Assembly: GCA_016748015.1 (NCBI GenBank)
Contig: JAAOMT010000040.1
Span: 310,001 to 374,000, forward strand
From: Geosiphon pyriformis uo1
Taxonomy: Eukaryota > Fungi > Glomeromycota
Direction of reading: 5' to 3'
Length of the DNA stretch: 64,000 bases
Positions 10,273 through 41,557 of this stretch are shown piece by piece. Both the position numbers and the translations under genes were made by a program. Numbering within the stretch: position 1 is the stretch's first letter; every line of letters starts with the position of its first letter. The notes beneath the pieces were generated by a model. The model ran no database searches and was not told where the DNA came from. It was given only the letters and a program-made list of their open reading frames with translations.

Positions 10273-11157
10273 TATTACTCATAAAAAGAAAAACAGATAT
10301 AAAGAGAATAGTAGACCAATGAGTGAATAGTATGTAGCACATGAGCACATTGCTCAGCAATATAAAGCAATAATAAAAATCATGGCACATTGCTTAGCAA
10401 TGTGGAGCAATGTCAGAAAACACGGCACATTGCTCAGCAATGTGGAGCAATGTTAGAAAATTAGAGCATATCACTCAGCAATATAAGCATTACTCAAGAA
10501 ATCATAACACATTGCTTGGGAATGTGAGCAATCTTGTAGAACATTAATTATATATATATAGCAGTAGTATTAAAAATAGAAAGATAAGAATCTTTTAGTT
10601 AGAAATCTTCCATCTACAAATATTAAATAAATAAATCATTCACTATTCAAATCCACTCTCCACTATCAACACTTTATGTTGATAGTAATTAATATCTAAC
10701 CACATTAGAACAATAGCTCTTGATCACAGCTATTGACAAGGTACTAACGTGTACATTGCCTTGGCTCATTTCTTTATTTTCTTTTATTTCTTTCTTTCTT
10801 TGATTTTTACTGTTATATACTAACTGATTAAGGATTAAAGCACTGAGTGATTAACGTCACAGATAGCCTGGTAAAAGACCCAGAAATAAGAGTAAAATTA
10901 TATATATATTAATGGATAGCTTACCAAAAGGGCACAACTGCCAGAATAAACCAGCCACCAAGCTGAAAACAGAAATTGGGAACACAACTTACCAACTAAC
11001 TATATCATCATTAAATCTTTATCCATTATACAAAGAACTCAACTCTAAAACCTTCAGATACAACCAATGTATCAGTATTACCAGTATTGTTAAGATATTA
11101 AGCACTAAGTTACAAATTTGTTATTTGATTTGAGACCCCAAATAATCATCTGTAAAA
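10273..11157 (+). repeat. 5' LTR of B
   Basis: Direct repeat of 19376-20236, with U3 dyad repeats and a TATA-like run at ~10548-10560. Confidence 0.95.
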
Positions 11158-11159
11158 TT

Positions 11160-11176: not shown

Positions 11177-11219
11177 TATAATCTTACAGAGAACACCACC
11201 AACCATAATCATCTAAACA

Positions 11220-17200: not shown

Positions 17201-17357
17201 TCACAAAGAATTGACTTCAATTCAGAAACAAGAATTTGCAGACAATTGCCATGCCAGATAGAAAATAGAACTTTTACCATTCAATTATATAGTACATTAT
17301 AAAAAGGGAAAAGACAATGAAAATGCTGATAGATTGTTGCGAATAAGACAAATCTAA
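11220..17357 (+). pseudogene. gag-pol: B ORF1: single-frame gag-protease-Cys-rich-dUTPase-RT-RNase H polyprotein with nonsense mutations
   Basis: ORF fragments at 11220, 11940, 12240, 12819, 13290, 14025, 14820, 15360, 15627, 16557 and 16929 share one frame. Motifs: CHYCDKQEHLQIDC, LILNSGLAGS, YLDNTNV, IDTSGQALGAVLSQ, YTDHK. Confidence 0.92.
15100..15530 (+). pseudogene. dut: Trimeric dUTPase domain in B pol
   Basis: Five dUTPase motifs in order: AEFDL, RSSL, GEIINTGYIG, KIAQAI, EFGSTG. Confidence 0.88.
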
Positions 17358-17387
17358 AAACATTTCAACCCAAAAATATAATAAAAG

Positions 17388-18763
17388 ATGAACACACAAA
17401 AATACCAACAACTTCAGCATTATATAAATACTTAATCATTCAAGGAGAAATTATCTCAAAAAGAACAAAACAACATAAAACAGCAATCAAAATATTTCAT
17501 CAATTATCAAAATATACTTTACTGGAAAAACAGAAGAAATCCAGACCAACCAACCAAAGTAATTACAAAATCAGAAAAAGAAACAATATTGTTTAACATG
17601 CACTCAGATCCAACAGCAGGATATTTTTATAAAAAAGCAACCATAAAAAGAACCAGAAAAAAATATTATTGGCCATCAATGTATCCAGACATCATCCAAT
17701 ATGTTTAAAGTTGTAATGCTTGTTAAAGAAAAAGTGGAACAAAATTTAGTGAACCATTAAGACCAATCAAAGTAGGACAACTATTTGATTACATTGGAAT
17801 TGACTTAGTCAGACCATTAACAATCACCAGTAAAGGCAACAAATATATTGCAGTAGTTATGGACTATCTCACAAAATAGCCAGAAGCAAAAGCCATTCAA
17901 AGAGCAGATGCAGAATCCATTGTCAAATTCATCTATCAAAATTTGATATGTCAACACGGATGTCCAAAAGAACTACTATCAGATCAAAAAATTCATTTTG
18001 TGAATAAAACATTAACAGAATTAAGTCAGAGATTTGGGATAAAAAGACCATTATCATTATTATATCATCCACAAACTAATAGACTAGTTGAAAGATTCAA
18101 TAAAACATTGTGTAAAGCAATCACCAAAATCAGTCAAAAAAACCAAGATGAATAGGATTTGTTTATACCATCAGTATTATTTGCTTATCGAACAATAAGA
18201 CAAGATACTATACAAACAACACTATTTAAATTAGTATATAGTAGAACAGCAACATTACCAGTTGAGATAGAGGTCAACACATATCCAACTGAACCAATAA
18301 CAGAAGCTAATTTCTAAGAAACATTGTTGAGAAGAACATATGACCTAATAGAACATTAGAAAACAGACAATGAAAAGCAGCTGATAACATTCAAAAGTCT
18401 CAAGAAAAACAAAAAAAACAACATGATAACCAATTACCAGATAAATCAGTTGAATTCAAGATTAGAGACAAAGTACTTCTACATCATACCAAAGTGGAAA
18501 AACAATGGAGTGGAAAATTTGACCCCAAATGGGATAGACCATTTTACATAGAAAAAATTCTTGGAAATAGAACTTATAAATTAAGATGGGACAACAAAAT
18601 CTTAACCAAAGCAGCACATGGTGATTGACTGAAACCATATTACCAAATAGCATTATCATTTACCAATAACATTCCATAATTGGAAATACAATGAATACTA
18701 GTTCAACCAGAGGAGATTCCATGAGATCTGGAACCAATCATAATCATTGGACCAAACACGTAA
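17388..18763 (+). pseudogene. int: B integrase (HHCC-DDE-SH3-like), starting at its own ATG
   Basis: MHSDPTAG..YYWP..CNAC, IGIDLV, ELLSDQ, HPQTNRLVERFN, WSGKFDPKWDRPF; ends DLEPIIIIGPNT*. One 1-nt deletion near 18350. Confidence 0.9.
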
Positions 18764-18772
18764 AATCAAACA

Positions 18773-19361
18773 ATAAAAGAGTATATAAAAACACAGTATA
18801 CATGACAAAGGCAACCAAGAAAAAAAATGGAAATACCAAATCATATTTACATTATAGCTCAACAATTATTCCAGGCCTTAAGTCAACAACTTTAAGGCAT
18901 AGAAATTATCGTTAACAACCAAACAATTTGCTATCAAAACACCAAAAAAAAGACAAAGAATACACCATATTAGCAGTTACCAAAAAAAATTGGAAGCAAT
19001 GGACAGAACAACTTCCAATATCATACTGTTACTACCAGTTAGATTGAAAGTTAAATATTCAAGAGTTGTATATCAACAAATCCAAGAAGATATTTAACCA
19101 AAACATAATACAACAAATTGAAGAATTTATTGGGAAAAAGACAAACTCAACACTACATATGAGAACAATTTACTGACTGCACAATATATTTCAGAACTAT
19201 CCAGAAATACTGTTATACTCTAACATAGAAATCATAACCATTAACCAATGGGGAAAAATGTACAAGTAGAAAACATAAAAAATAAAGTCAAACAAACAAT
19301 ACTAGAAAAAGAAGTATTAAAGCTAATTCAGAATGAAGATTTTGATGGAGCTCAATATTAA
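18773..19361 (+). pseudogene. B ORF3, unknown function
   Basis: Reconstructed QQLFQAL..EIIVNNQTI and YYQLD*KL..MRTIY*LHNIF align with D ORF 32787-33233; ends DFDGAQY* at the PPT. Confidence 0.7.
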
Positions 19362-19375
19362 AAAAGAGGAGATAA

Positions 19376-20236
19376 TATTACTCATAAAAAGAAAAACAGA
19401 TATAGGGAGAATAGTAGACCAATGAATGAATAGTATGTAGCACATGAGCATATTGCTCAGCAATATAGAGCAATAATAGAAATTATGACATATTGCTCAG
19501 CAATATAGAGCAATATCAGAAAACACAGCACATTGCTCAGCAATATGGAACAATGTTAGAAAATTAGAGCACATTGCTCAAAAAATCATAGCACATTGCT
19601 TAAGAATGTAAACGATCTTATAGAACATTAATTATGTATATATAGCAGTAGTGTTAAAAATAGAAAGATAAGAATCTTTTAGTTAGAAATCTTCCATCCA
19701 CAAATATTAAATAAATAAATCATTTACTATCCAAATCCACTCTCCACTATCAACACTTTATGTTGATAGTAATTGATATTTAACTATGCTAGAACAATAG
19801 CTCTTGATCACAGCTATTGACAAGATACTAATGTGCATATTGCCTTGGCTCATTTCTTTATTTTCTTTTATTTCTTTCTTTCTTTGATTTTTACTGTCAT
19901 ATACTAACTGATTAAGGATTAAAGTGCTGAGTAATTGATATCATAGATAGTCTGGTAAAAGACCCAAAAATAAGGGTAAAATTATATATATATTAACGGA
20001 TAGCTTACCAGAAGGGCACAACTGCCAGAATAAACCAGTCACCAAACTGAAAACAGAAATTGGAAACACAACTCACCAACCAACTACATCATCATTGAAT
20101 CTCTGTTCATTATACAAAAAACTCAACTCTAAAATCTTCAGATATAACTAACATACTAGTATTACCAGCATTGTTAAGATATTGAGCACCAAGTTATTGT
20201 TATTTGATTTGAGACTCCAAATAATCATTTGTAACA
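19376..20236 (+). repeat. 3' LTR of B
   Basis: Preceded by PPT AAAAAAGAGGAGATAA; ends TGTAACA. Confidence 0.95.
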
Positions 20237-20299
20237 CCACCAAAAATTATCTACTATTTAATTAAAATAAACACCAAAACACATTAACACCTAATATAT

Positions 20300-20917
20300 T
20301 GTTACGGGTTGGAGTAACAAGCTAATGGATAGCAAGAGAGAACAGGATTGTAGGGTGATAGAAATAATCAAAGAGAATTCAACTTTAAAGAGCGAATTAA
20401 ATGAATATGGATTCAATGTGCAAGATTAGTCTCATAAAATATCTCAGTCGCTATTCTTTTTAAAGGTAACTGGGGAATCTGAAGGTAGAGGGATAGTCTG
20501 TACTGTTAACAATTGATAACTGCTGGTATAATTCTATGCCTCATGTCAGCACTTTTAGAATTCAATATCAGGTATCAACTTGTGTTCTTCAGTCACATTT
20601 ATTTAAATAATCTTCAAATACTACAATTATATATGTCAGGAAAAGGCCAACAAGTAATTTTTTATCCTAAGATGTTCGGATACTTGAAGATAGGGAAAGA
20701 GAAATTAGCAATAAGAGAGTGATTGAGATGAAAGTTGTTATTTTTATTTATTTGATTCTTGTCTGAGAGATGATTTTCTACAACTAAGAGACTCATTGCT
20801 TATATAGCTAATGAAAGTGGTCAATGATCACTATCTAAAAATAGAGTGACTAATTATATAACATCAGTGACTAATACATGTGATAACTAATAAAAATTAT
20901 GGGTTTCAACCATAACA
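20300..20917 (-). repeat. 3' LTR of C
   Basis: TGTTACGGG...CCATAACA; direct repeat of 27252-27905 lacking 36 bp. Confidence 0.95.
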
Positions 20918-21542
20918 TTATCTTCTCCAAAAAGATTGAGCTCTGGCAAAATCAAGCTATTTATAGGGTATTCTAATTGAAGGTTTTTGTCTAACTCAAA
21001 ACTAACTAGTTTGTTGAAGTTTTTTGTGGATAAAATATATAGTACTTGAGGCGAAATAAGCTTTGTATCCAAGAGACCAAATCTTTGTATAAGAGTTTTG
21101 GCTCTTCTTGCAATGGTCAAAACTCTTGGAACATCTAAACATATAATGCCCAAAATTTCACTTGTATCTCTGAAGTTGTTTTTTTTATGAGCTTCATTTC
21201 TTCTATGATTTCACCAAGACAACCATAGAGTTCTAGTTGCCTTTTATATGACAAGTTTTTGTCTATGAGCAAGATTTTCTTAATCGTTTTTCCAATTGTC
21301 ATGGAAGGTGTAAGTATTGCTGCTGTTATGCTTTCCAGCAAATACTTATCCATTTTGCTACCAATTTTTTCTCTTCTGGTAGTAATTTTCTTTGGTCTAA
21401 TAACAGTATGTGTTCTACTGTTATTAGTTATAGTGGTTTGTTTTCCAATAGTCAGAGTAGCATTTGGATAATTTTTGATCCAGTACTCATGGAGAGTGTA
21501 GAAAGCGTTTTGAATGTTTTGATTTAGAAAATAATTGTTCAT
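20887..21542 (-). pseudogene. C ORF3, unknown function (frameshifted near 21150)
   Basis: ORFs 21135-21638 and 20887-21153. LYGCLGE..IARRAKTLI..LYILSTKNFNKL parallels the ORF3 pattern of B, D and E. Confidence 0.65.
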
Positions 21543-21583
21543 GTTGATTGAAGATACCTCTGTTTTGGGAATGGTGCATTTAT

Positions 21584-22897
21584 TTATATCTGATTTTTGT
21601 TGATCATTTGGGTCGGTATTACCACAACAGGTAACCAATCAGGTTGTTTGTGATATTTTTTGAGTTGTATATCATGAACAAGGCGATCATTAAAGATTGT
21701 TCCATTTTGATCTTGTAAGATATAAGAACTATTGTTCAAAACTTTGTTGACTATAAAGGATCCTTTCCACCAGCTAGAGAATTTATCACCATAGATATTG
21801 TCTCTGTCTGAATAGTATTCTAAAACTAAGTCACTAATACTTAAGGAAAGTGTTTTATATGTTTTTTTTTTCTTAAGCTTCTCTTGGAATTGTTTTATCT
21901 TTTCAAAAGCAATTATCCGTGTTTTTACCAATGAGTCAAGAATGGTACCAAGTCTTTTTTGCAAAATGTCCTTGTAATCTCCTATTGTTATTTCATCAAA
22001 AGGTATTGTTTCTATATCTGTTTCTATTGGTAAAGTTGCCATTCGTCCATAGAACAGATAAAAGGGTTCATAACTTTTTATGTCATAATTCACAGTTCTG
22101 TAGGCGAATAAAGCTGAAGGCAATACTTTGTCCCATAGGTTGGTTTCTTTACTGGTTTTGGCTAGGGTTTCACATAGTGTTTTATTGAAACGTTCCACTA
22201 GGCCATTTGTTTGGGGGTAATAAGGGGAAGAGAGTTTATGATGTATTTCCATTTTTCTGCAAAGTTCTTCAACCAGTGTATTGAGAAAAGCTCTTCCTCT
22301 ATCAAATAAAAGTTCTTTGGGGCAGCTGTGACAACAGATAATATTTTCATAAATGAAATTGGCAATTGAGACTGCTGTTTGATCTGGGGTGGCTCTTGTT
22401 TCTACTCACTTTATAAGATAGTCGGTAGCTGTGATAATGTATCTGTTGCCATCAGGAGTTACTGTTAAAGGTCCAACAACATCTATACCAATTCTGTCAA
22501 ATAGTTGACCAACAGAAATCAAATAGATATCTTTCTTGTGATTGGGTTTTCCTCTTCTTTGGCAGATATCACAGGTTTTAATGTATTCAGCAATGTCTTT
22601 TTCCAAGGTAGGCCAATAATAATGAGCTAAAGTTTTCTGAATCGTTTTTGTTTTTCCAAAGTGTCTAGCTAATGGATCAGTGTGCATATTGTAAATTACA
22701 ATTTTTCTTTCTTCAAATCTAATGACTCTCTGGGAATGGTCAGAATCTTTTCTATTTCTTTTATATAATTGGTTTTGGCGAATCAAATAGAAATTTGATT
22801 GTTTGCACAAATGTTCTCTTTGCTGTCGAGTATAGTCTGGCGGGTATTGTCTTTTACCCAAAAATTTCATTAAGGCAGAGTAGTTGTCCAAGTCCAT
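21584..22897 (-). pseudogene. int: C integrase as a separate ORF
   Basis: ORFs 22406-22897 and 21584-22252 share one frame: H..H..CDIC, IGIDVVGPL, YPQTNGLVERFN; ends WLPVVVIPTQMINKNQI*. Confidence 0.92.
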
Positions 22898-22962
22898 TAT
22901 TGTGTTTGTTTGTGGGGGAGTTACAAATAATTAAGTTGGTTTGGTTTGAGAGAGTTTTACTA

Positions 22963-25655
22963 TCACTGGATGGTAAGTCTGGAGAGAGCATCAGCATTTT
23001 GATGATTAGCTCCTTTGTGGTGTTGAATGTCATAGTTGAATTCATTCAAGTGGAGTATTTAGCAAGTTATCCATTTATGTTCCAGGTTTTTTTTGTTGCA
23101 TAGCCAAACCAAAGCTTGGTGATCTGTTACCACCAAAAATTTCACACCCTTAAGATATTTGTCCCAGTAGCTGGTAGCCCAAACTACTGCTAAGCATTCT
23201 TGCTCAGTAACTGAGTAGTTCCTTTCTGCTGGTGTGAGAGTTCTACTGGCATATGCTACGGTGTGTTCTTTGTTATCTTCATCTTTTTGGGAAAGAACAG
23301 CACCAAGTCCATAGCCAGATGTATCAGTATGGAGGATAAAAGGTTGATTCAGATTAGGTTGTATGAAGATGAGTTTTGTAACCAGTTTTTCCTTCAGAAT
23401 TTCAAATGCTTTTTGTTGATGAGTGCCCCAGTGATAATTGAAGTTTTTCCTAAGTAGCTGATTGAAAGAAACAGCAATTTTGGAGAAATTCTTGACAAAC
23501 TTGTGATAATAAGAGGCCAAACCAAGAAAAAAGTGTAGTTTATGAACATTCATTGGTTGTCTAATGTTTTGAACTTTTTCAATTTTGGCTGGATCAGGGA
23601 AGATTCCATCTTTTGTAATAAAATGGCCAAAGAACTGGGTGGATTGACATCCAAAAAATAATTTGATTGGATTGATCTTGAGGCCAGCATTTCTAAGGAG
23701 GTCAAAAACCTTTTGCAAATGTTCAAGGTGTTCATCCCAGGTTTTTGAGTATACCATTATGTCGTCCAAGTAAACTAGAACAAAGTTTTTTTTTACTGAT
23801 TCAAATACTTTGTCTATTAAGTGTTGAAAGGTGGGAGGAGCATTTGTGAGACCAAAAAGCATGACTGTGAATTCGTAGGTGCTATACTTGGTGATGAAAG
23901 CAGTTTTCTTTCTGCTTTCTGAATCCATCTCTACTTGCCAGAATCCAGCAGTTAAGTCAATGGTTGAAAAGAAAGTGGCACCATGGAATTGGTCTAGCAT
24001 TGCATCAATCTTGGGAAGTGGGTACATGTTTCTTTCAGTAATAGCATTTAATTGGCAATAGTCAACACAAAAGCATAGGGTTCTTCCTTTCTTAAATACC
24101 ACTACAACTGGGAATGCCCATTCATTCTTGGTTTCTTATATGAATCCAAGGTTTTTTATTTGGGTTATTTTCTTTTTGATAAACTCATCATTGTGCTGGT
24201 TAAATTAATAGGGCTTCAAATGGATGAGGCGAGTTTTTCTGGTGATGATGGTGTGTTGTATCACATGTGTATGTCCAGGAGATTTACTTTCTTTTGAGAT
24301 AACTGGGCTGTTTCTAGCCAGCAGATTTTCAATGTTTATCTTTCTTTCTTCTGGAGAGAGTTCTCTTTGTTCTACAACCAATGATTGGATTTCAGGTGGT
24401 TCGTTTTCAAAGGACTTTTGGACTTCTTTTATTTCCTCATGGAGTATCAAGCTGATTGGTTCTCAATCTTTGTAATAGATTAAGCAGAACATGCATTCAT
24501 TGCTAGGAGAATACAATGGTTTGTTGCACCAGCACCAGGCACAAGAACCATGCCACCAATAACTGTATTTGGCTTTCTTGTCTGGCTTTCTGTCAAAGGT
24601 TCTTCTAAGCATGTCATAATAAGGCCAGCAAATCAGCTTGCCATTGACAATGATTCCTTTTTTATCTGCCTTGACATTATCCAGTGGTTTGCCATTGCTG
24701 GTAAAGATGGTATAAGCGAGTTCAGCAGTTTCTTCTTGTTCTTTTTGTTTTTCTTCTTCTTCACTTTCTTCATCATTTGATTCATCTGATTCATTTTCTT
24801 TTGGGCTCTGCTTGGGTACTGGGGGAGTTGTTCAATGGTGACATTTAACCACAATGGGTTTCTCACCACATCTGATGATTAGTTCACAAAGTTCATAATC
24901 AAGCAAAGCTTTTGCTTTCTTGAGCCATTCATTGCCAACAATGATAGTGTATTTTTTTGCTTTAGATACTTTCATATCAGTTTCAATGCTGATGCCATTG
25001 ATGCGAACAGGAATAGCTTTGGCTATGCCAAGCCCTTTTTTTTATTACCATGCACATTGATCATTGGTCGTGTGAATGGTTCATTAATTTTTCTGCCAAT
25101 TGTTTCAAGAAAGTGTTTAGCAATAACACTAACAGATGATCCACTGTCTAGGATCAAATCAATAAAGTAGCCAGCCATTTGGGCTTTGCAAATTAGAGAA
25201 ATGACATTGCTATTGTCAGCAAGTCCAGCTTGGCGAGGGTGTTTGTTGGTTTTGGGTGTCTTTTTCTTTGGAATCAAAGATTTGTGAAGATTTTTTCTGA
25301 ATTGTGGATGGGTCATCAATTGGCCAAAGGTTATATATGCTGGGGTTTCTATGAGGTCTTTGACAACAGAATAGGGGCCAGATTTTTGTACTATTTCTGG
25401 GGGTTCTAACTTTGGAGGGTTCTTGAAAACTTTGGCTTTTGGGGGCTCATTGTTGTCAGCAGTTGATGTAGAAGCTTTATTGGGGTCCAGAATGAAATCA
25501 ACTTTGGCTTTTTTCTTCTTTCTTGTGAATTCAGAGAAGTTGATTGCTAGTTTATCTATGTCATGATTATCATCAGTTAAGTTAAAAGTGTAAAAGAGGT
25601 TTTCTTCTGGTTGGCTTGCACTCTCACCCTTTGGAGGTGCATCTACCAGTTTAAA
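22963..25655 (-). pseudogene. pol: C pol: protease-RT-RNase H
   Basis: LILDSGSS, LVYLDDIMVYS, HTDTSGYGLGAVLSQ, VTDHQAL, NADALSR followed by TGA-TAG-TAA. Confidence 0.93.
25617..25655 (-). promoter_or_regulatory. -1 ribosomal frameshift signal (U UUA AAC, 7-nt spacer, stem-loop) between gag and pol
   Basis: The heptamer is in gag phase (CCT TTA AAC TGG TAG) and the -1 frame opens FKLVDAPPKGESASQPEEN into the protease frame. Hairpin TGCAC-CTC..GAG-A-GTGCA. The same heptamer is at A 440-446. Confidence 0.78.
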
Positions 25656-25657
25656 GG

Positions 25658-27199
25658 CTAATAAACAGTGGCTTCAACTAAGGGATCCTCTCCAAAGAAA
25701 TTGATGTTGGCATGATTAGGTCTTTGATTGGAGACATTGTTGTTGTTGTTGGGTCTGTTGTTTTGGTTGTCATTTTTTCTGGGAGCTGGAGGAGGCAGTA
25801 AAAGATTGTTATAATCTCTTGAATAATGTCCTGTTAATCCACAATAATAGCACACAGGTGGGCCATGATTTTGCTGTCTTTGATAGGGAGGTTGCTGGGG
25901 CTGGTTAAAACGAGGTTCATATCTAGGTCTTGGTGGTTGCTGATTATCTCTGACTGCTTGTGCCAAAGGTTCTAATAACCGGGCAAGATTAGCTGTGAGT
26001 CTATCAATTAATTGTTCATTTGGATCTTGAGTTTGGACAGCAAAAGAAACAGCAGCCATTTGAAGGGCAGTAGCCATGACAGGAGCAGAAGCAAAAACTG
26101 AAAGTGTAGATCCCAAATGTATTCTTTGGTTGTCTTCAATTCATTGGGCAAGTTCAATGGCCATGTCCATTGTAAGGTTGTCTTTTAGAGCCAAGAGAGG
26201 CCAAAAAGCATAAAATAAATCGGTTTTCAATCCTTTTGTGAAGGAATGAATCTTTTGTTCTTCTGTCCAGTTTCTCCCAGAGTCTACACATTTGATTAGC
26301 TTTCTAATAGCTTTGGCATATTTAGTCACTACTTCTTCAGGGCCTTGAGTTCTTCTTTCCAATTCCATGCACCATTTGGATATTAATATTGGGGTTCTGA
26401 ACTTGGCCTCAAATTGGGTAGTGAAAGAGGTATTTTCTTCTTCAGCATTGATTAGTGTCCATCTGATTATTCTGTGTTGAGCATTGGCATCTGTTTCTTG
26501 TGAGAACCAGATAGCAGGAAAGCCTTGGAGGTAGCCACCAACGATTTGAAACTTGTATTTTTCATCATACTGGTTGGCTGTGACAGCTCTCTCAAAATCA
26601 TCTAACCATTCAATTGGATCTTGTGCATTACCTCTAAATAATAGTAGTGAGATATTGTTTCTTCTTCTTAGAGCAATTTGTATATCTTGGAGGGTGGCCA
26701 GAATGTTTGCTTGCATGGAGTCATTAGCCATTGGTTCAGGAGTAACTGTTTGTATAGATGAGTCTGATTTGTTTGATAAAAAGTCAAAAACAGGGGCAGT
26801 TTGGTAGCTTTTTTTTTCTGTTTCAAAGGGAGTTTCAGTTGCTTAATGGGCAGCAATCCAAATGTGGATTTAATGATTCAGATATTTGAAATCAGGGGGC
26901 TGTTGTTCAAAAGTTGCAGAATATAAGAGCTGATTGATACTGTTGTTTCTTTCTTCAAAGTTATTTTCAAAATAAGCTTGGTTAAAGTAATAGGTTGTAT
27001 AAGTTGTGTAGGTTTCAGCTAAATGCTTGTTCAGAAACCAGTTCCAAAAGTCTTGGAATTGTCTACTGGATTGTTTTTCAATGGGAAAGCAAATCAAGCA
27101 GGAGGACAAAGAATTGAGTTCAATAAAGTCTAAATCGTTTTTGTTGTGTGCTTTAAAGTGTTCTTCTGATTGTTGTGGCAAGTATGAATAATCATCCAT
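25658..27199 (-). pseudogene. gag: C gag
   Basis: ORFs 26870-27199, 26141-26731 and 25658-26116 share one frame; DPIEWLDDFE capsid-like segment and CYYCGLTGHYSRDY knuckle. Confidence 0.9.
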
Positions 27200-27228
27200 A
27201 CAATAAAAAACAAAGTGGATTTTGACAA

Positions 27229-27245
27229 CCTTACAGGGAGCACCA
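27229..27245 (-). promoter_or_regulatory. Primer-binding site of C
   Basis: TGGTGCTCCCTGTAAGG after a TAAAAG spacer. Confidence 0.82.
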
Positions 27246-27251
27246 CTTTTA

Positions 27252-27905
27252 TGTTATGGGTTGGAGTAACAAGTTAACGGATAGCAAGGGAGAACAGAAT
27301 TGTAGAGTAATGGGAATAATCAAAGGGAATTCAACTTCAAAGAGTGAATTAAATGAGTATGGATTCAATGTGTGAGATCAGTCTCATAAAATATCTCAGT
27401 CGCTATTCTTTTCAAAGATAACTGGGGAATTTGAAGGTAGAGGGATAGTCTGTATTGTTAACAATTGATAACTGCTGGTATAATTCTATGCCTCATGTCG
27501 GTGCTCTTAGAATTCAATATTAGGTATCAACTTGTGCTCTTCAGTCATGTTTATTCAAATAATCTTCAAATACTACAATTATATACGTCAGGAAAAGGCC
27601 AACAAGTAATCTTTTATCCTAAGATGTTCGGATACTTGAAGGTAGGAAAAGGGAAATTAGTGATAAGAGAGTAATTGAAATAAAAGTTGTTATTTTTATT
27701 TATTTGATTCTTGTCTAAGAGATGATTTTCTACAGTTAAGAGACTCATTGCTTGTATAGCTAATGAAAGTGGTCAATGACCAGGTCAACAACTAGGTCAA
27801 TAATTAGGTCAATGATCACTATCTAAAAATAAAGTGGCTAATTATATGACATTAGTGACTAATACATGTGATAACTAATAAAAATTATGAGTTTCAACCA
27901 TAACA
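27252..27905 (-). repeat. 5' LTR of C
   Basis: TGTTATGGG...CCATAACA with the PBS adjacent. Confidence 0.95.
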
Positions 27906-27909
27906 ATAT

Positions 27910-29246
27910 TATCTTATAACTCTTTAATTACCAAGAAAATTATTATTAAAAGAACAAACAAAAATTCAAAAACAAGTTAAACATTACTTGGTTGATAATA
28001 ATATACTATATTAATATTATCAACATAATTTATTCTAATTGATTACTGAAATTAAGAAGTAAATTATTTTTTATAACATATATTCAGATCCAAATACAGA
28101 ACATTTTGCAAAAGAAGTCACAATTCAACAAACAATTAGTCAGTATTACTGGTTAAAGATACATGTTAATATTATTTAATATATTTACAATTGTAATATA
28201 TGTTAAAGAAAAAAAGTATTAAAAGCAACTGAACTATTATAACTCATTAAAATAAGAAAACTATTTAACAGAGTAAAAATTAATCTGGTAAAACCACTAA
28301 CTATTACTATTAAAGAAAACTAATACATTGCAGTTATCATGAACTACTTAACAAAATAGCCAGAAACAAAGACTATTAAAACTGCAGATGCTAAATCAGT
28401 TGTTAATTTTATGTATAAAAATTTGATTTGTAGATATAATTGTTCAAAAGAGCTACTCTTAAATCAAAGAACTCACTTTGTAAACAATTTGCTTGCTGAA
28501 ATCAGTTAATACTTTGAAATAAAATAATTTTTTTGTTATCTTATCATTTATAGACAAATAGATTAATAGAATGTTTCAATAAAACATTATGTAAATTACT
28601 AATAAAAATAAGCAATAAAATAGAACAAGAATGGAATTTATTTATCTCTTTAGTTTTATTGGCTTATCAAACATTAAAACATGACATTATAAAATTCACA
28701 TTATTTGAATTAACATGTAAAAAGAATATTATATTATTTATAAACTAATAATAAATATTTATCTAACAAAACCAATAAATAAAAACAACTTACAAGAAAC
28801 TATTAAAAAACAGACTTATAAACTGCTAGAAAAACTAAAAGGCAATTGCTAATACACAACCAATAATGTTGAATACTCTTAAAAACAACAAAAATTCGAC
28901 ATAATAGCAAATTATCAGAACAACTTATTATCTACAAAATAGAAAACAAAGTTTTATTATATTAAACAAAAGCAGAAAAACAATAGAACAAAAAATTTAA
29001 AATAAATAAAACAGACTTTTTTATGTTTACAATGTTTTGGATAATAGAACATATGAGTTATGTTTAGATAATAAAATTTTGAAAAAAATTGTACATGATA
29101 ACTGATTAAAAATCTATTATTAATAACAATTATCTGATCTGTTAATGTTTAAATTAGGGATACATATACTAATTATGTTTTCTAACCAAATTCTATAAGA
29201 CTTAGAGCCAATAGTAATTATCAAACATTACCCAAAAGACAATTAA
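27910..29246 (+). pseudogene. int: E integrase remnant (first codons at ~20266-20299, split by C)
   Basis: Collinear with B 17430-18763; ends DLEPIVIIKHYPKDN*. Confidence 0.82.
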
Positions 29247-29299
29247 TTTGATCAATTATATTTGAATTATTACTATTAATATTTAAAAAAGAATTAAAA

Positions 29300-30023
29300 C
29301 AAAATCAAAAATAGTTAGAAAAATCAGAAACATTAAACTATTAAAGAAATTCTTTTAAATTTTAATATATAAAAATAATTTATTTTAGTATTTATTTATT
29401 ATAAATATATTTGAAAATATTATAAATACTTCTCAACTTTTATTTCAGGTACTACAAGAAAATAATTTCCTATTAGAAATTACTTTTAATAATTTTTAAA
29501 TATTATATAGAAAAAAAAATTCAGTTATATAAAAAAATAAGTCAAACACAAATCATTTTAACTCTTATAGCAAGAAACAAAAAATACTAACACATTAATT
29601 GATAAAATCATGGAAAAATTCCAGCTTCTAAAAAGTATAATATTCAAAAAAAAAACTTAATTGCTTTTTTTTGCTATATATACTTCATAATAATCACACA
29701 ATTAGACTTTTAAATAATCTATATTAAAAAAAGTAGCAAAAAAATTGACAAACAAAACTCCAGAAGTTTGAAGAACTAATTAGAAAAAACAATTTTAAGC
29801 ACTGTTTTAGGGCAGCATACTAACTCTATGTGTTGTTTCAACATATAACAAAAGTATTATTAACAAACAAAATAAATATGCTTATTTTTAATGAAATTGA
29901 AAGACTTACTAATAATAAATTTCAGAACTTGCAAGAATAAATAGTTCAAACAAATATACAGACTTTTATGTTAGATGTTAACATTGGAAAAATGCACATC
30001 AATTTTAATAGAGCTTAATCTTA
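29300..30023 (+). pseudogene. E ORF3 remnant
   Basis: SQLLFQVLQE..LEITFNN and FRAAY*LYVLF..EIERLTNNKFQNL align with D ORF3. The start is approximate. Confidence 0.68.
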
Positions 30024-30035
30024 AGAGAAGAATAA

Positions 30036-31322
30036 TATTATTTAATAGAAATTAACAAAAATCAAAAGTAATAATATTATAATATATTAACCAATTATTA
30101 AATAATAGTATAAATAGCACAGATTAATGGATAAAATTAGAAAACATAATATATATACAATAGTGTACAAAATGTGCACAAATGTATCTAATTTAACATA
30201 ATTACAAACAAGTAAGCCAAAAAGCATTTACAATCAAACAAAAGACCCAATAGCTTAGCAATTACTTACTAATTAGTTAGAATAAACACAATTATATATA
30301 ATTCGAAATATGTATATATATAATAACTTTTTAACTAAAAAAAAAAACAGACAAAAAAAAAGAATAATAAAGAACAAAAAATCAATTAAACAAAATAAAA
30401 ATGAAAAAAAAGTGGAAGAATTAAATTATAATTTCAAAAAAAACTAAACAATATGTCTTTTTGTATTATTTACTAATATTGAGATCAGTAAAATTGGAAA
30501 TTTTTCTCTTTTATAATCTGGCTCTCTTTTACAAATAACCAAAAAGACTATTATTTTTCTTTCATTATTATTTTTCTATTGAAAAAAAACAACAGTAAAA
30601 ACATCTAATATGTCAACAAAAACATGAATAAAATCCAAACTTAACAAGATTGAAAACACATTAAAAGATATTAAATACATAAAATTACTTAAAAATTACT
30701 TGTAATATCTTGGTTAAAATTAACAGTTGACTTAAAAATCTAGAATAAGCTTTCTATATCTTTGAAAAAATAATTTTTGATTAAAATTATTTTATGAATA
30801 CTAATTTTGTTGAATTTTACTTTTTATTTTAATTCTCTTTGAATTTGTTAGAAATATAATACTGCTTTATTATAAATAAAAAAATACAAACATCTGATAT
30901 TAGTGCAAAATAAAAAAATATTTCTATAAGAGTCTTAAGAAAAAACACAATTAGAAGTGTAAAGATATGACAAAAATTCTCCTTAGAAGATTAGTATAAT
31001 AATAACTATTAACAACAATATTAACAAAAACATTATATTATATACTAAATTCAATAACAAAAACACTTACCAGAGGAAATTATCTAATATCTGCTAAGAA
31101 ATTAAGAAAACTTACCAAGCTAACTTTCAAATTTTTAAATAAAAAAATAGTAGTAATATATTAAACAGAAATTCAACATAAATCAAAAATAACATTAATT
31201 AAGATTAATATACTTATTTTCACATCAAAATTAAATAATTCATTATATTATCACTTAATCTAAAAAGCTATAGAAATTAATCATAGTATAACTACTAAAA
31301 GAAAAGAAAAACACCTATAATA
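30036..31322 (+). repeat. 3' LTR of E
   Basis: Direct repeat of 2718-3971, preceded by the PPT. Confidence 0.9.
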
Positions 31323-31781
31323 ATATATTTTAAGAACAGCATAATAGCCTATAATTTGGCTATTGTAAAGAACAGAAGTCCATACATTTTAACACTAATG
31401 TTTGTATTTACAACTGGAAAGTAAGCAGCCATCTTATTAGTAACTTTAACAAAACTAGTACATTTTAAAAAACTATCTATATAAACTTTAATAGAACTAA
31501 ACCAAATCTCAAGCAAGCTTTCTTGTATATTAAAGAATTTTTTAGATTTCAAAACATTTAACCCAGATAATTTACCAGCTTTTGCAAAATTAACTACCAA
31601 AGAACTCTTATTATTTAAAAATTTAGATGCCACTTAAACCAATTAGACACAAAGTCTCTTAGATCCAATTTTTTTTATTAATAAGATATTTTCCAGTTTA
31701 TCACATTTTTTTTTGGTTCAAAAGTCTGTTACTAAATACAATTTTAAACTGCTTCAAAGAAAAAGCAGAGCTATAATACAG
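31323..31781 (-). pseudogene. LINE-1 ORF2 fragment (RNase H N-terminal half) between E and D
   Basis: ORF 31349-31633 IKVYIDSFLK..AAYF..GLLFFTIAKL matches LSVYIDGSVK..AVAFF..GLMLSTLVEL of LINE-2. Confidence 0.82.
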
Positions 31782-32752
31782 TGTTACTGGAGGTTTTTGG
31801 TCTCTTTTCTTAAATGTTGTTAATGTTGACTTGCTGTGAATTCATGTTCTCAAGAAGTAGTTGGACTTCCAGTAACTGAATTTATCTTTAAATTATCTCT
31901 TATAATTTGAACTGCTGGACTTATAAGTAGAATGGCCATTTCTGTACCAGTTGCTTGTGTAGTTATATTGTAGTAAACATCAACTCTTTTCCAAGAATTG
32001 CTCATCTGGAAGCTTACTAAAATATGTAGTTACTTTGCTATGAAAGTTAACTCTTCTACAGAAATCTTGTCTGTAGGCTACTTTAATGATTATAATAAGA
32101 AAAGAAAAAGAAAAATAAAAGAAATGTAAAAGAAATAGAATTTTATCAAGAAAAACGTTTTCTATCCAGACCTGGAGTCACTAACAATTTACTGAAATTG
32201 GTAGCTAATCAATTTCGAAATGTTAGTTGTATTTAAGGAAATTTCAAGTATAATAATTTAAGAATTTGGTTTTTGAATATTTAATTTTTATTTGAATGTA
32301 TAAAAAGTAATTTGTTTTGATTAAGATATCTAAAATAAGATACTATGTTAAAATATTGTAAGAAGATACATTTTTTTGAAGAAAAAAGCTCTTCTTTTAT
32401 ACAACTTGTTATAGTACTAGTCTTTGAACTTGCATTTTTTTCTTTGCTACAATTTGAGTAAACTAAAGATACATTTCGGCAAACTACAAATTATTTCACT
32501 GAACTATTAATTATTTCGGCCAATTTTTATTAATTTCGGCGAATTTTGACTATGTTAAATGGTTCAGGATATTGTGTAATTTGATCATCTTACTTTCTAT
32601 AGTACAAATTGGATTATTGATTGAGTAATAATATTTGATAATTTGATTAAATAATAAGTGGTAATCGAAATGATAATAATATATGCTAATTAATAATAGA
32701 AATTATGAGAGTAATTTTATGTTAATTAATAGCTAAAATTTTACTGGTAACA
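31782..32752 (-). repeat. 3' LTR of D
   Basis: TGTTACTGG...CTGGTAACA; repeat of 40587-41557. Confidence 0.95.
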
Positions 32753-32763
32753 TAATTTCCTTT

Positions 32764-33450
32764 TTAAGACTGAGCTTCATCAAAGTTCAAGCACTATCTG
32801 TGATGTTAAAATAGTGGTCCAAAATAATTGAAGTAATTTGGTCTGAAAATTGTTGAAATTTCAGTTCTGTAAGCTTTTTAATATATTGAATCTTTATTGA
32901 ATAAAGTATTGAATTTTGTAGAACGTTTTTACAAGTGTTGAATAACTCATAGAGTCTAAATGCTGCTCTAAGTTTGTAGCAAGTGTTTGTTAATCCAGCT
33001 GCTGTCTTGAATTCATTGTGAATTTGTTTTTGTATAGTCTCAGAAGTAATGTTGGTTGCTTCAAGTTCTAGTTTCTGTTTATAAAGTGTTTTTCCAATAT
33101 GAAAATATTTATATATAAAGGTATGTTCATTGTTCTGTTCATTGAGAAATAGTAGAAGTTTTTGTTGAATGGTGGCATTTGGTGGAATGTCAATAGAGAC
33201 AATTAAAAAGTTTTCTTTTAATGCTTGCTTCAAAAGTTCTGGTAATTGGATTCCAGAGTGATCTTTTGTTTTTTTTATAGAAGTGATAATTTTGAGAATT
33301 TTTTACTACTGGTATTGTGGTTTTTTTCTGAATGTAATTAATTTGACTTCTATTAATCATTATGGATAAGTTAAAAAGTGTTTTCAAGACTAACATTAAT
33401 TTTTGGAATATTTGTTGAATATTTCAGGGAATAATCATGATAAAAAAATT
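32764..33450 (-). pseudogene. D ORF3, unknown function (best-preserved copy)
   Basis: ORFs 33190-33396 and 32787-33233: YKYFHIGKTL..LRAAFRLYELF..YIKKLTELKFQQF. The start is uncertain. Confidence 0.75.
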
Positions 33451-33605
33451 GACTAATTAATAAAAAAAATTTGAAAAAGAATAAAGAAAATTATTTTTGG
33501 GTATAGAATTTTTATTTGTTTTTGGGTTTGAATGTTTTTTGTAATTATTTACTATTTTTGTTTTATATCTTGTGTATTTTAAAGGGATTATTAAAAAATG
33601 TTAAA

Positions 33606-34987
33606 TTAAATGTTCAAGTTTGGTTGTTGTTCTATTATAACTATTGGTTCTAAATTTTGGAAAATATTTTCAGGACTAATTAAAAAAAAATGTGTACCAA
33701 TTTGTGGAATTAATGGTTTAGACTTGTTTCTGGAATGATAGCATTTCAATCTATCTCCATGTGCAACTTTTGCTAGTACTTTGTCATTAAGTCTTAACTT
33801 GTATGATATATTGCCTAGAATTTCGTAAATATAAAATGGTCCATCCCATTTATGTTCAAATTTTCCACTCTATTGTTTTTCAGTCTTAGTTCTGTGTAAG
33901 AGAACTTTATTTCCAACTTTAAATTCATTGATAACTGGTGGCAGTTTATTGTCATGTTTTTTTTTGTAGGGCTTGAGAATGTTTAATATGAGTGGCTGCT
34001 ATGTGTTTCTTTTCTTTCAATATACTAAAAAGAGTGTAAGCTCTTCTTTGAAGTGTTTCTTGAAAGTTTTTTTTATTGATTGGTTGCACTGGGTATGTTT
34101 CCACTGTGAAATTAATTGGTAATATTGCTGTTCTTTTATAAGTAAAATCAAATAGTGTGTTTTGTAGTATTTTGTTTTAGTGTTCTGTATGTTAGTAACA
34201 CTGATAAAATAAAAATATCCCATTCCTGTTCAAAATCTGTTGAGACTTTGGCTAAAGATTTACACAATGTTCTGTTAAAACATTCTACAAGTCCATTTGT
34301 TTGAGGGTAATAAAATGATAATAGAGGTCTTTTGACATTGAATTGTTCACAAATTTTTTGTATCAAGTTGTTCACAAAATGTGTTTTTTGATTAGATAAG
34401 AGTTCAATTGGGCATCTATGTCTACAAATAATGTCTTCATAGATAAAATTTGCTATTGATTTTGCATCTGCTCTTTGGATGGCTTTAGCTTCAGATTATT
34501 TGGTGAAATAATCTACTGCAACTGTAATATAACGATTTTCTTGGGTTGTGATAGGTAATGGTCTGACTAAATCAATTTCAACTCTGTTAAAAAGTTGTTC
34601 AACTTTGATTGGATTTAAAGATTCTGTAGGGCAAGTTTTTTCTCTTCTTTGACAATTATCACAAGATTCTATATATTGTCGGATGTCTTTTTGCATGTGG
34701 GGCCAAAAATAATGTTCAAGAGTTCTTTGAATTGTTTTATCTTTTTCCAAGTGTGCTAAAAATGGATTTGTGTGCATGTTGTATAGGATTGTTTTTTTTT
34801 AATTTTTCTGTACTAATCTGAGTGATTGGTTTGGGTTTTTGCAATTTTTGTAATAGATTTTGTTATGATGTATAAAATATTGTTTGAATTGGTATTGTAA
34901 TCAATGTTTTTTACTTGGAGACCAATTTTCTGGCATGGTAAGAGTCTCCAAATAGTTTTTAAGATTGTTGTAAATTCTGGGATCTAT
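33606..34987 (-). pseudogene. int: D integrase as a separate ORF (start ATG decayed to ATA)
   Basis: (M)DPRIYNNLKNYLE; ORFs 34496-34777 (H..H..CDNC) and 34148-34375 (YPQTNGLVE); ends NLEPIVIIEQQPNLNI*. Confidence 0.88.
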
Positions 34988-35042
34988 TGTTGTTTTGTTG
35001 TTTTGTTAATAGTAGTAAGTTGTAGTGGATTTGTTGATGGTG

Positions 35043-38000
35043 TTAATCTTGTCTTATTTTTGAGAGACTATTAACATTGGTGTGTAGTTTTTCTGGTTTG
35101 TGGTGTACAATATATTTGTAGTCGGCTAAGAAATCATTCTATCAAAACTGTTTGGCACTTTGTTCAGTTTTCTTTTTATTGAGCCATTTAAGACCAATAT
35201 TGTCAGTTATGATATCAAATTCTTTTTCATTCTTCAAGTATTGCTAAAAGTGTTTAAGAGCCCAAATAACTGCAGCAGCTTTTAATTCAGTTAAGCCATA
35301 TTTGAGTTCTGTTGGTTTAAGTATTCTACTGACATAGACAATAACTTGTTCCTGGCCATTTTCATCCAATTGTGATAGAATGGCACCAAATGCTATGTGT
35401 GAAGCATTAGTGGCTAGTTGAAATCATTTGTTAAAGTCTAGGTAAGCAAGAACTGGGGTTGTTGTTAATTTTGTTTTGAGAGTTTCAAAAGTTTTTTGTT
35501 GTTTTCAGTTTATTGGTATGGCACGTTTTTGTTGGTAAAATAATTAAGTGGTTTGGCAATTTCTGAGAATCCTTTTATGAATTTTTGATAGTAAGAGGCT
35601 AATTCTACAAATCTTTATAGCTCTGTGATATTTTTGGGAGTTTGAAAGTTTTTGACAGCATTGATTGTTCTAGAATTTGGTTTGATTCCATCTTTACTGA
35701 CAATGTGTCCAAGAAAAATTAAACTTGTTTTTCCAAAGTGACATTTCTCAATGTTTAACTTCAATCCTATTTTCCATAATTGTTGAAAAACTTCTCATAG
35801 GTGGATAAAATAAGCTTCAAAACTTGGTGAGTATATATTAGTGTTATCCAAATAGACAACTATTGATTGCTATAAGAGTCTTTCATATACAACATCCATG
35901 AGTTGTTGGAATATTGCTGGTGTATTGCAAAGTTCAAAAGACATAACATTGAACTCATAATTTCCTTCTTGAGTAGTAAATGCTGTTTTAGATCAATCTT
36001 TTAGGTTTATTTTGACTTGCCAGTATCCACTTTTTAAGTCTAAAGTTGAGAAAAACTTGGCTTTTCTTAGAGCATCTAGCATGTTATCAATTCTTGGAAG
36101 AAGATAGGTATCTCCAATTGTCACACTGTTCAGTTGGTAATAGTTAACACAAAATCTGATTTTTCTATTTTTTTTTAACAAGAACTACTGGTAAGGCCCA
36201 AGAACTTCTTGATGGTTAAATCAATTCATTATTGAGTATTCTCTAAACTTCTTCTCTAATAAATTGGTGGCTGGCAGATGGTACTTGATAAGCTTGTTAA
36301 TGTTTTGGTAAAGCATCTCCTGTGTAGATCTGATGTTGAACAATTTTAGTTTTTCCAAGGTCATTGTTATCTTTTGCAAATATGTTAGCGAATTCAGCTA
36401 TTAGCTATTTCAATTGTCTTTGTTGTTAAGATTCTAAGAGACCTATGTTAATTCAAGAAAGTTTTTCTTCCAAAAGATGGTAGTTTTCAATAATAAAAAT
36501 AATGTTTGGATTTGGGAGTAGTGTATGTTTTATAATTTCGATAAAATTAGAGACAATTTAAGAGTTTTTATCTTGGAAAATATTGCTGTATATAATTCCA
36601 ATCTCTAATTTATTCAATAAAACAATAGGGTAATTATTGGGGTTGTAAAATATAACTTAAAATTTTTTTATTTCTTTAAGAATATAAACATTTGGAATTA
36701 AGATTTCATGCTTTAAACAGATTTGTTCATTGGATTCAAAGATTTGTTGAGTAGTAATGAGTTTTAAGCAAATGTAAATTTCTTGATGTTTTCTAAAAAG
36801 TGAAATAGTAATTGGTTGGGGAAGTTGAAGAATCTGGTAAGATTCATTCTGTGTATTGAAAACTATATTTACTGGCACTGTAAATCATCCAGTTAAACCA
36901 AAACTTTGAGTTCCTCTTTTACTTTTTCCCAATTGTTCTCTGTTGTTAACTAATTGTAAATCCAAAATGTTAATTAAGAGTAGGTAAATTGCTTGGGCAA
37001 TTTTTTTAGCATGTTCAATTCTGACTGGTTTGTCTGTTTCATTCTGTAACATGATGGTAATATCTCCAGTATATTTTGCATCTATGATTCCTTCTTTAAT
37101 ATTGATTTTTTTGTTTGCCAATGATGATTGGAAAGCAATTTGTATTATTGCTCCTGGTGGTATTTTAAAAGCAATTTTGAGATTAATATTGGTTAAGGAT
37201 TTTGGTTAAAAAACCAAAGTATCTTTGCCAGAATATCTTAGGTCATATTCTGTATTAATTTCATGGGCTTTTTTTGGTTTTATTCTTTTTCCATTGTTGT
37301 CAAAGTATTTGAGTTGTATAACAGGCTGGTTTTTAATAAGATAAATTGGAGTTGTTGTACTTTCTTCTTCTGTTTTATGTTCTCCAAATTCAATTTCTTC
37401 TTGGTCATTTTTACTGGATAAGAAGATACTAAGAGCATAGCATTCTGAACACCATTTGTCATCACAAGACATAATGTATTCTTTACACAATTGAATGTTC
37501 ATCTGCTCTAATTGTTGAATTTGAGCTTTTTGGATTGGGTAAGTATGACTTGCAATTTGATGGTATGTTTCTACTTCATCTTCATAATTAAATCTAATTA
37601 ATTCCATTGTGTATTCAATATACTCAGCTTCTTTCATTTGGTGGACATTTTCTTGTGTGATTCCATTAATTAAAGTCATTGCTAAGTCAAAGATCATTTC
37701 AGCATTATAAGGATAATAGTAGAGTTTATTGAGAGTGCTGTTATATGCTGCATCAAATAGTATTCTTTTTCTGACTTTTTCTAATATTGATAGAGCATAT
37801 TGGCAGGTTTAATCACATACTTTTTTTCTCATTGCAATATCAATCCAATTGCATTTTTTTGGTAGCATATCTCCACATGTGAGACAAGAAGTGTTGTCCT
37901 ATTTTCTATTTCTTTTGGGATATTTAAATCGTTCTCTATGATATGCTTTATAATAGTAACAGGTGCAAGTTTCATATTCTTCTTCTGAAGAAATACATGC

Positions 38001-40586: not shown

Positions 40587-41557
40587 TATTACCAGAAATT
40601 TTTGGTCTTTTTTCTTGAATGTTGTTAATATTAACTTGCTGTGAATTCACATTCTTAGGAAGTAGTTGGACCTCTAGTAACTGAATTTATCTTCAAATTA
40701 TCTCCTATAATTTGAACTGCTGGGCTTATAAGTAAAATGGCCAATTTTGTGCCAATTGCTTATATAGTTATATTGTAGTAAATGTCAACTCTTTTCCAGG
40801 AATTGCTTGTCTAGAAGCTTACTAAAAATGTGTAGTTACTTTGCTGTGAAAGTCAACTCTTTTACAGGAATCTCGTCTATAGACTACTCTAATGATTATA
40901 ATAAGAAAAGAAAAATAAAAATAAAAGAAATGTAAAAGAAATAGAATTTTATTAAAAGAAACGTTTTCTATTCAGGCCTGAAATTACTAACAATTTACTG
41001 AAATTGGTAGCTAATCAATTTTGAAATATTAGTTGTGTTTGAGGGAATTTCAAATGTAATAATTTAAGAATTTGGTTTTTGAATATTTAATTTTTATTTG
41101 AATATGTAAAAGGTAATTTGTTCTAATTAAGATATTTAAAGTGAGATACTATGTTAAGATACTGTGAAAAGATACATTTTCTTAAAGAGAGAAGCTTTTT
41201 TTTATACAACTTGTTGTAATACTAGTCTTTGAACTTGCACTTTTTTTTTTGCTACAATTTGGGTAAATTAAAGATATATTTCAGCAAACTACAAGTTATT
41301 TCACTAAACTATTGATTATTTCGGCGAATTTTTATTAATTTCGGCGAATTTTGACTATGTTAAATGGTTCAGGATATTGTGTAATTCGATCATCTTACTT
41401 TCTATAATACAAATCGGATTATTAATTAAGTAATGATATTTGATAATTTGATTAAATAATAAGTGATAATTGAAATAATAATAATATATGCTAATTAATA
41501 ATAGGAATTATGAGAGTAATTTCATGCTAATTAATAGCTAAAATTCTATTGGTAACA
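40587..41557 (-). repeat. 5' LTR of D
   Basis: Repeat of 31782-32752; PBS 2 nt downstream on the minus strand. Confidence 0.95.

Follow-up and report, generated by a model that had tools for sequence, protein, structure and literature searches.

The window analysed here is a 64,000-nt stretch of the Geosiphon pyriformis genome (contig JAAOMT010000040.1 of assembly GCA_016748015.1, positions 310,001 to 374,000), an AT-rich, CpG-poor nest of mobile elements in decay. It holds three complete long terminal repeat (LTR) elements, B (10273-20236, + strand), C (27905-20300, - strand) and D (41557-31782, - strand), each with a primer-binding site (PBS), a purine tract, 4-bp target duplications and direct LTRs with TG...CA ends (the TG of B now reads TA). 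The LTR pairs are 90.6%, 92% and 90% identical in B, C and D, respectively; the differences are almost all transitions, and C>T and G>A changes amount to heavy decay of the window copies. Pfam searches of C and B, and likewise of two related loci (L012 and L019), gave the domain order Gag, protease (PR), reverse transcriptase (RT), RNase H and integrase (IN). In all three elements Pol ends four codons past the last RNase H motif, and IN starts 30-65 nt further on. Element C has three tandem stop codons, followed by an integrase ATG at 22897 in a different frame, 65 nt from the first stop; in D, the stop is followed by an IN frame that runs from an ATA at 34987, again in a different frame; and in B, the stop is followed by further in-frame TAA codons at 17379 and 17382 and then by an ATG at 17388 in the same frame. 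The initial annotation of this DNA had proposed that integrase is a separate cistron, in the order gag-pol, IN and a third open reading frame (ORF3). Its coordinates for the three junctions all check out, and the arrangement holds in the host's own families as well as in a deep clade of relatives.

Run X1 contains host copies and is possibly the window's own sample; its contigs were aligned to the B and C junctions at 80% likeness. Runs X2 and X3 had no contigs that aligned. Across 1423 contigs at the B junction, TAA 17355 and TAA 17379 are without any variant at 5% or above, whereas position 17382 is a C in 94% of the contig depth. The third stop of B is decay; the caution that B's stops might be CAA>TAA changes thus applies to that stop and not to the other two, which are family-wide. 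The IN ATG of B is changed from G to A in 23% of contig depth, and the same change explains the ATA found in place of ATG in D and in the older element E. At the C junction, 5392 contigs show no indel at 5% or above; the 40 best-supported variants include none at the first two stops or at the ATG (145 weaker variants lie beyond that list), and the last base of the third stop is variable in 46% of depth. Since they are retained in host-genome contigs, the Pol stops of B and C are not decay, with the sole exception of B's third stop. A single open frame running from RNase H into IN, which would have contradicted the proposal, was not seen in the families, and the split Pol/IN layout of the window elements is confirmed.

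Element E is split by B and C, which inserted to the left and to the right of the point where its RNase H and integrase meet. Read across the insertions, the Pol of E ends 5 nt ahead of the IN start (Table 1). Its description as compatible with the split is borne out in that Pol end and IN start lie in different frames, but E also has an earlier stop inside its RNase H motif, which leaves some doubt about where Pol truly ends. Before the insertions, the sites taken by B and C would have been separated by about 60 nt (window 10272, 20237-20299, 27906).

Table 1. Coordinates of elements B, C, D and E within the window.
Element	Feature	Position	Strand	Remarks
B	5' LTR	10273..11157	+	One of LTR pair; then PBS starting TTTGGT
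B	gag-PR-(dUTPase-like, by eye)-RT-RNase H	11217..17357	+	Single decayed frame; end TAA 17355-17357, constant in host contigs
B	Spacer, 30 nt	17358..17387	+	No AUG; TAA 17379 family-wide, TAA 17382 decay
B	Integrase cistron	17388..18646	+	Decayed; start MNTQKY
B	3' LTR	19376..20236	+	Purine tract before; 4-bp target duplication CTAC/CCAC
C	5' LTR	27252..27905	-	TG...CA; then PBS TGGTGCTCCC; 4-bp target duplication ATAT
C	gag-PR-RT-RNase H	22957..27150	-	Decayed; ends NADALSRLTIQ + TGA-TAG-TAA 22965-22957
C	Spacer, 59 nt from third stop	22898..22956	-	One G, no AUG
C	Integrase cistron, 437 codons	21584..22897	-	One internal stop; YPYY-like N-terminal motif, H2C2 zinc domain, rve core
C	ORF3	20920..21542	-	Frame-shifted; weak, non-significant likeness to ORF3 family (E about 0.06)
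C	3' LTR	20300..20917	-	Purine tract before
D	5' LTR	40587..41557	-	Then PBS TGGTGCTCTCC; target duplication CTGT
D	gag-PR-RT-RNase H	35043..40500	-	Decayed; ends SKIRQD + TAA 35045-35043
D	Spacer, 55 nt	34988..35042	-	No G
D	Integrase cistron	33708..34987	-	Decayed; start ATA (ATG inferred), DPRIY
D	ORF3	32790..33302	-	Conserved ORF3 family member (E 4e-8 over six-frame set)
D	3' LTR	31782..32752	-	
E	RNase H end	9879..10272	+	Cut by B insertion
E	Pol tail and IN start	20237..20299	+	TAA 20259-20261, 5-nt spacer, IN start ATA 20267; between B and C insertions
E	Integrase remainder	27906..29129	+	Resumes past C insertion

A protein search with C's integrase gave 220 matches in the class of 240-765 residues, a class that is blind to fusions. 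Among the best 120 of these (36-66% identical to C's integrase), 95 start exactly at the Met of the window's integrase, 10 carry 1-16 extra residues ahead of it and 15 start downstream. Directly after the conserved Met, 104 of 105 homologues have D, N or E, which fits a retained, NatB-acetylated Met, although the conservation may also be structural. The search of longer proteins gave 53 matches, two of them close. One (P0122) is a gene model whose join removes the end of RNase H and the start of IN. The other (P0123) is a true RT-RNase H-IN fusion in one frame, with ORF3 at its end, nested among split elements; because its exclusion from the clade was rejected (p-AU 0.001 in an approximately unbiased test of a group named after a fast tree), it is likely a later re-fusion. 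A search with Pol was open to 457-1455 residues, and among the best 120 homologues 92 end no more than 30 residues past RNase H, 5 have longer tails, 7 are incomplete and 16 include IN. Three of these 16 are Rhizophagus clarus models with joins that delete the RNase H motif, and the RT tree places the other 13 outside the clade. The named relatives belong to Rhizophagus, Entrophospora and Geosiphon; a G. pyriformis gene model (P0160) is 65% identical to C's integrase over a quarter of its length, with Gag and protease text in common as judged by eye.

We also examined 100 DNA loci: the best 80 of at least 562 confirmed metagenome matches, one locus from a viral collection and the first 19 of 80 loci from genome bins; L101-L161, which resemble bacterial insertion sequences (E 5e-19 or weaker), are excluded from all counts. 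Both domains are present in 48 of the 100 loci, of which 20 are split, 22 fused and 6 have IN first. The conserved Met is found in 18 of the 20 split loci, and 17 of these fall with the window elements in one IN clade (L088 has gaps and is not in the IN tree). Every clade locus with both domains is split (18/18), and all 21 fused loci placed in the IN tree lie outside the clade. The split loci outside it are L060, which is decayed and has no Met, and L089, which has a frame change and a fused sister, L090. In a second, careful IN tree of 49 rows the clade has support of 93/90, and its sister group holds a Pol from a fern (P0137); in the RT-RNase H tree, 107 Pols that lack IN fall together with one fused row, at a weaker support of 88. 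IN and RT both fall among gypsy elements in these trees, which were built without the reference-named lineages of GyDB, and IN has H2C2, a DDE core and GPY/F. Together, the 18/18 count and the trees mark the split as ancestral to the clade. Nothing close to these elements was found among viral contigs, and four bacterial bins that carry them gave no new junction; the contigs concerned (L082, L083, L084 and L088) are likely contamination of bacterial genome bins from a host or soil fungus.

Several features of individual relatives stand beside the split. Gag follows ORF3 on the same contig in L002, L009, L012 and L082, as if the elements were circularly permuted, which would fit either one-LTR assemblies or true circles. 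Some subclades have a long, acidic, partly Cys/His-rich extension of Pol after RNase H (L012:3494-4441, L082, L019, L004 and L033; the Pol end of L082 was placed at 1147 by likeness to L012). Four loci have one in-frame TGA followed by CTA between protease and RT (L008:870-875, L027:1585-1590, L088:2879-2884 and L019:3358-3363). UGA-CUA is a readthrough context, and some members of the clade may use readthrough to produce Pol beyond the protease. Another short element before the IN AUG, a 14-nt hairpin-like motif, is shared by L019:7390-7410 and L068:50-65. Domains other than the canonical set also occur: a dUTPase-like segment lies between protease and RT in B (15160-15530, +) and D (37260-36900, -), as judged by eye, PF00692 is found in relatives P0432, P0461 and P0465, and a NUDIX domain in P0377, P0385, P0387 and P0459.

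The third cistron, ORF3, has about 145 codons and, in 14 elements, lies -4 to 150 nt downstream of IN; its profile gathers 526 clusters at 50% identity. Membership is clear for D and weak for E, and the copies in C and B are too decayed to score. The predicted fold is an all-helical domain (pLDDT 92). ORF3 had no Pfam match below E 0.01, and Foldseek searches of PDB and BFVD gave none at E 0.001, which shows neither a new nor a distinct fold; the best structural match had a VIA-align Z of 4.6, and matches in the Atlas are low-overlap leads only. No likeness to TAV was established, and no family is assigned. In P0123 ORF3 is fused to IN, a hint that the two proteins may act together. The tricistronic layout first proposed for these elements stands as far as separate IN and ORF3 are concerned, and falls short in that relatives can exceed three cistrons.

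Junction anatomy bears on how a separate integrase might be expressed. We measured spacer length from the nearest upstream ORF stop, that ORF being chosen by eye, a choice that alters 1 of 14 spacers (L008) and shifts L021, L031 and L051 into the overlap class. On this measure, 10 of 25 junctions overlap or are separated by 5 nt or less, 14 have spacers of 30-163 nt, and one is 727 nt long (L019). The close junctions comprise an AUGA (L017), two UAAUG (L020 and L030), six others with overlaps of 8-65 nt and a 5-nt spacer (L034); spacers of 62-65 nt are found in window C, L003, L006 and L012. The 14 mid-length spacers contain 3 AUGs where 14.1 are expected, and none of 5000 shuffles was as low. 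A purine stands at -3 of 32 of 36 IN AUGs, as compared with 99 of 167 internal AUGs (p 5e-4). Most long gaps between the Pol stop and IN are chains of overlapping small ORFs (L017, L030, L021, L031/L051 and L025), the extra ORFs being joined by AUGA, UAAUG or overlaps of 8-28 nt in the first four of these. The gap in L017 has ORFs of 90 and 238 codons; the larger of the two (L017:521-1237), upstream of IN and with AUGA overlaps on both sides, is restriction-endonuclease-like (Mrr_cat_2).

We propose that IN is probably made by termination-reinitiation on a single polycistronic genomic RNA. Pol ends after RNase H, and IN is a separate gene that has its own conserved start codon in a strong context; in the proposed mechanism, a 40S subunit would remain on the RNA past the Pol stop. 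Where stop and start overlap, translation would restart in place; elsewhere the 40S subunit would scan 30-160 nt to the IN AUG. Integrase would then come from the same RNA as Gag-Pol, at or under the level of Pol and beside the assembling particle, and would be packaged by binding RNA, RT or ORF3 rather than as part of a polyprotein. Reinitiation is favoured, though not proved, by comparative anatomy, since stop-start overlaps, AUG-poor spacers, chained small ORFs and the similar spacing of ORF3 all point to it. If true, it ties the output of IN to that of Pol.

Several observations weigh against this proposal. Reinitiation past a very long ORF is usually inefficient, and the mechanism is deduced from the anatomy of the DNA. 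The depletion of AUGs depends on the measure, in that the 20 raw gaps between Pol stop and IN are not depleted (37 AUGs vs 43 expected), and the spacers between IN and ORF3 are not significantly so (7 vs 10.4, p 0.19; 6 of the 7 are in L011). The 727-nt gap of L019 has 12 AUGs and no long ORF. No cis-signal 5' of the stops is shared, the UGGGA pentamer of calicivirus type occurring in 1 of 25 junctions. Acceptor-like sequence lies directly ahead of the AUG in L025/L052, and an AUG-poor leader with a good start context would suit a subgenomic RNA equally well.

The G-poverty seen in the window, which the initial annotation suspected of being inflated by G>A decay, also occurs in intact relatives (3% G in L015 and L082, as compared with 18-19% in upstream coding sequence), so decay is not its only cause; nonetheless, among 13 relatives 5 have spacers that are not poor in G, and neither G-poverty nor CAA-richness is a general feature of the junctions.

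The strongest alternative, to which we give a distinctly lower probability, is that the separate IN gene is read from a subgenomic RNA of its own, produced from an internal promoter, by splicing from a 5' donor, or by cleavage or nuclease stalling at an RNA motif. The conserved Met and its start context suit any monocistronic RNA. Also in favour of this alternative are the AUG-rich gap of L019 and the acceptor-like sequence of L025/L052, where a pyrimidine-CAG, acceptor-like or hairpin sequence precedes the IN AUG (L025:470-485 and L052:387-402), as well as a covarying motif of about 40 nt that lies 3-50 nt ahead of the IN AUG in seven loci of one subclade. The motif's 13 pairs show 97.8% pairing, 5 of them have changes on both sides, and its covariation is 0.454, as compared with 0.172 for shuffled and at most 0.121 for slid alignments, in a structure derived from the same sequences that score it. 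A model of the motif adds L035 and L005, each just before IN (the full set being L004, L005, L007, L012, L022, L023, L033, L035 and L083); it has no match in the window, and Rfam has no family for it (best E 2.7, elsewhere). The motif is optional, since L082, a sister of the motif-bearing L012 and L083, has a plain U/A-rich spacer without it, and this speaks against a subgenomic RNA made at the motif; under reinitiation, the motif is predicted to assist restart or to process the RNA in that one subclade. Splicing also fits poorly with the junctions, because 8 of 20 have no YAG within 60 nt of the AUG and its position is not fixed in the rest, and because silent sites of the RNase H codons ahead of the stop are free to vary. 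A splice acceptor concealed in the NADALSR codons was ruled out, AG being missing in 7 of 21. Moreover, each overlapping ORF in the chains would require its own transcript.

As a general explanation, ribosome entry at an internal site of the genomic RNA, without any need for Pol translation, seems improbable. The covarying motif could serve one subclade and unstructured A/U/C-rich leaders the others; the structured motif does sit between the Pol stop and the AUG, and A-rich, G-poor spacers are found in B, C, D, L015 and L082. However, 10 of 25 junctions lack any spacer, spacer composition is not conserved, and no upstream sequence is shared. Either a subgenomic RNA or internal entry may hold in single subclades. 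We consider it very unlikely that a Pol-IN polyprotein is still produced, by readthrough, frameshifting or an intron that removes the stop. Five of 20 junctions keep the Pol frame, those of L003 and L006 with a single stop, relatives seemingly use a UGA-CUA stop elsewhere in pol, and four R. clarus gene models (P0122, P0364, P0366 and P0375) join RNase H to IN. Those models, however, use three different joins that all lose the last RNase H motif; all three frames occur (5, 5 and 10 of the 20 junctions in frames 0, 1 and 2), B and C have tandem stops, slippery heptamers near the stop are found in only 3 of 20 junctions and none is common, no in-frame GT-AG intron could be placed in 16 of 20 without loss of the RNase H motif, and an invariant Met would be unnecessary. 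Least credible, and refuted for the clade as well as for B and C, is the idea that the stops are decay of dead copies or the stand-alone integrases Ginger-like DNA transposons: heavy C>T and G>A change and B's third stop lend it something, but host contigs retain the stops, as do intact relatives whose Pol and IN frames are long and open, and LTRs, PBS, purine tract and RT are present.

Going beyond the preferred reinitiation model, we offer a more speculative picture, which we hold only tentatively. These may be operon-like eukaryotic retroelements in which three to five cistrons per RNA are translated in a stop-restart relay, an arrangement that would allow cargo, such as the restriction-nuclease-like ORF, to settle between Pol and IN. 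ORF3 could be the elements' own reinitiation activator or an adaptor that brings free IN into the particle, the RNA motif could tune restart, and the freed YPYY integrase could be the kind of intermediate that yields Ginger1-like transposons.

An operon-like layout is uncommon in eukaryotes. The usual view of LTR retrotransposons is that RT and IN are packaged as one polyprotein with Gag; a deep, abundant clade in which IN has lost the polyprotein link shows that the link is not obligatory, and raises the question of how free IN is dosed and packaged. The clade would also be a very large natural set of fungal polycistronic junctions, possibly useful for multi-gene expression. For annotation, the consequence is that gene finders invent introns joining RNase H to IN, or call the integrase a stand-alone gene. 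LTR elements make up 41.2% of the G. pyriformis genome (PMC11952901). Among the matches listed in our full-text literature search, which did not extend to subscription journals, Repbase or supplements, none describes a separate IN cistron; the available text of two papers on elements of arbuscular mycorrhizal fungi describes no gypsy gene layout (10.1101/2021.03.30.436303; PMC11952901), and that of a further paper contains no such case (PMC6431247). A conserved gene layout in a large gypsy-derived clade has apparently gone undescribed.

Two other observations concern the remainder of the window. Tandem 12-bp repeats lie within LTR-like sequence at 55194-55349 and 27780-27815, the latter in C's 5' LTR. 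A related pair of non-LTR-like elements, with frames that resemble RT and a C-terminal RNase H, was recognised by eye at 48097-54136 and 61565-63995 (-).

Among known systems, the window elements are closest to Ty3/gypsy, with which they share LTRs, PBS, purine tract, 4-bp target duplication and the order gag-PR-RT-RNase H-IN. In particular, H2C2, the DDE core, GPY/F and the YPYY-like motif (Y/F12, P19, F/Y37 and Y/F45, with GPY present) resemble the YPYY lineages near Athila/Tat; the YPYY motif is common to Athila/Tat-related elements and Ginger1 (PMC2836005). The C-terminal chromodomain of chromoviruses was found neither on C's IN with Pfam nor among the domains precomputed for the 120 IN homologues. 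In Ty3, IN is made as part of Gag-Pol (PMC4974528), and in a survey of fungal elements IN is the last pol domain (PMC3248453). Here, by contrast, Pol stops after RNase H; IN starts at an AUG of its own, and ORF3 and, in some elements, cargo ORFs lie downstream or in between. The canonical gypsy trait of an IN in the pol frame, released from a polyprotein, is absent, and we regard the elements as a gypsy-derived variant rather than as canonical Ty3/gypsy members. In foamy viruses, as would be the case here, an enzyme is packaged unfused to Gag; there the whole of Pol, including IN, comes from a spliced RNA, whereas here only IN is detached. Ginger1 likewise has a free-standing, gypsy-like integrase ORF with YPYY, H2C2, DDE and GPY/F, proposed to be gypsy-derived (PMC2836005), but it has terminal inverted repeats and no RT, whereas the window elements keep LTRs, Gag and RT.

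Parallels for the proposed reinitiation come from other polycistronic RNAs. In TURBS-dependent termination-reinitiation of calicivirus type, stop and start lie within a few nt; this spacing is seen in 10 of 25 junctions, those of B, C and D not among them, and the 18S-complementary motif 1, sought upstream of the stop as the UGGGA pentamer, was found only at the one junction already mentioned. Caulimoviruses, which have no integrase, are similarly reverse-transcribing, with ORFs tightly spaced or overlapping. On their polycistronic RNA, TAV drives reinitiation across a few to 700 nt (PMC5972666). Among non-LTR retrotransposons, ORF2 of SART1 is reached by a stop-start overlap, and in LINE-1 a 63-nt spacer leads to ORF2 on the same RNA (PMC5972666); the UAAUG junctions of L020 and L030 and the 62-65 nt spacers found here are alike. 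SART1 and LINE-1 couple a Gag-like ORF1 to an enzyme ORF, whereas here the enzyme region itself is split, the upstream ORF is far longer, and three to five cistrons can be chained.

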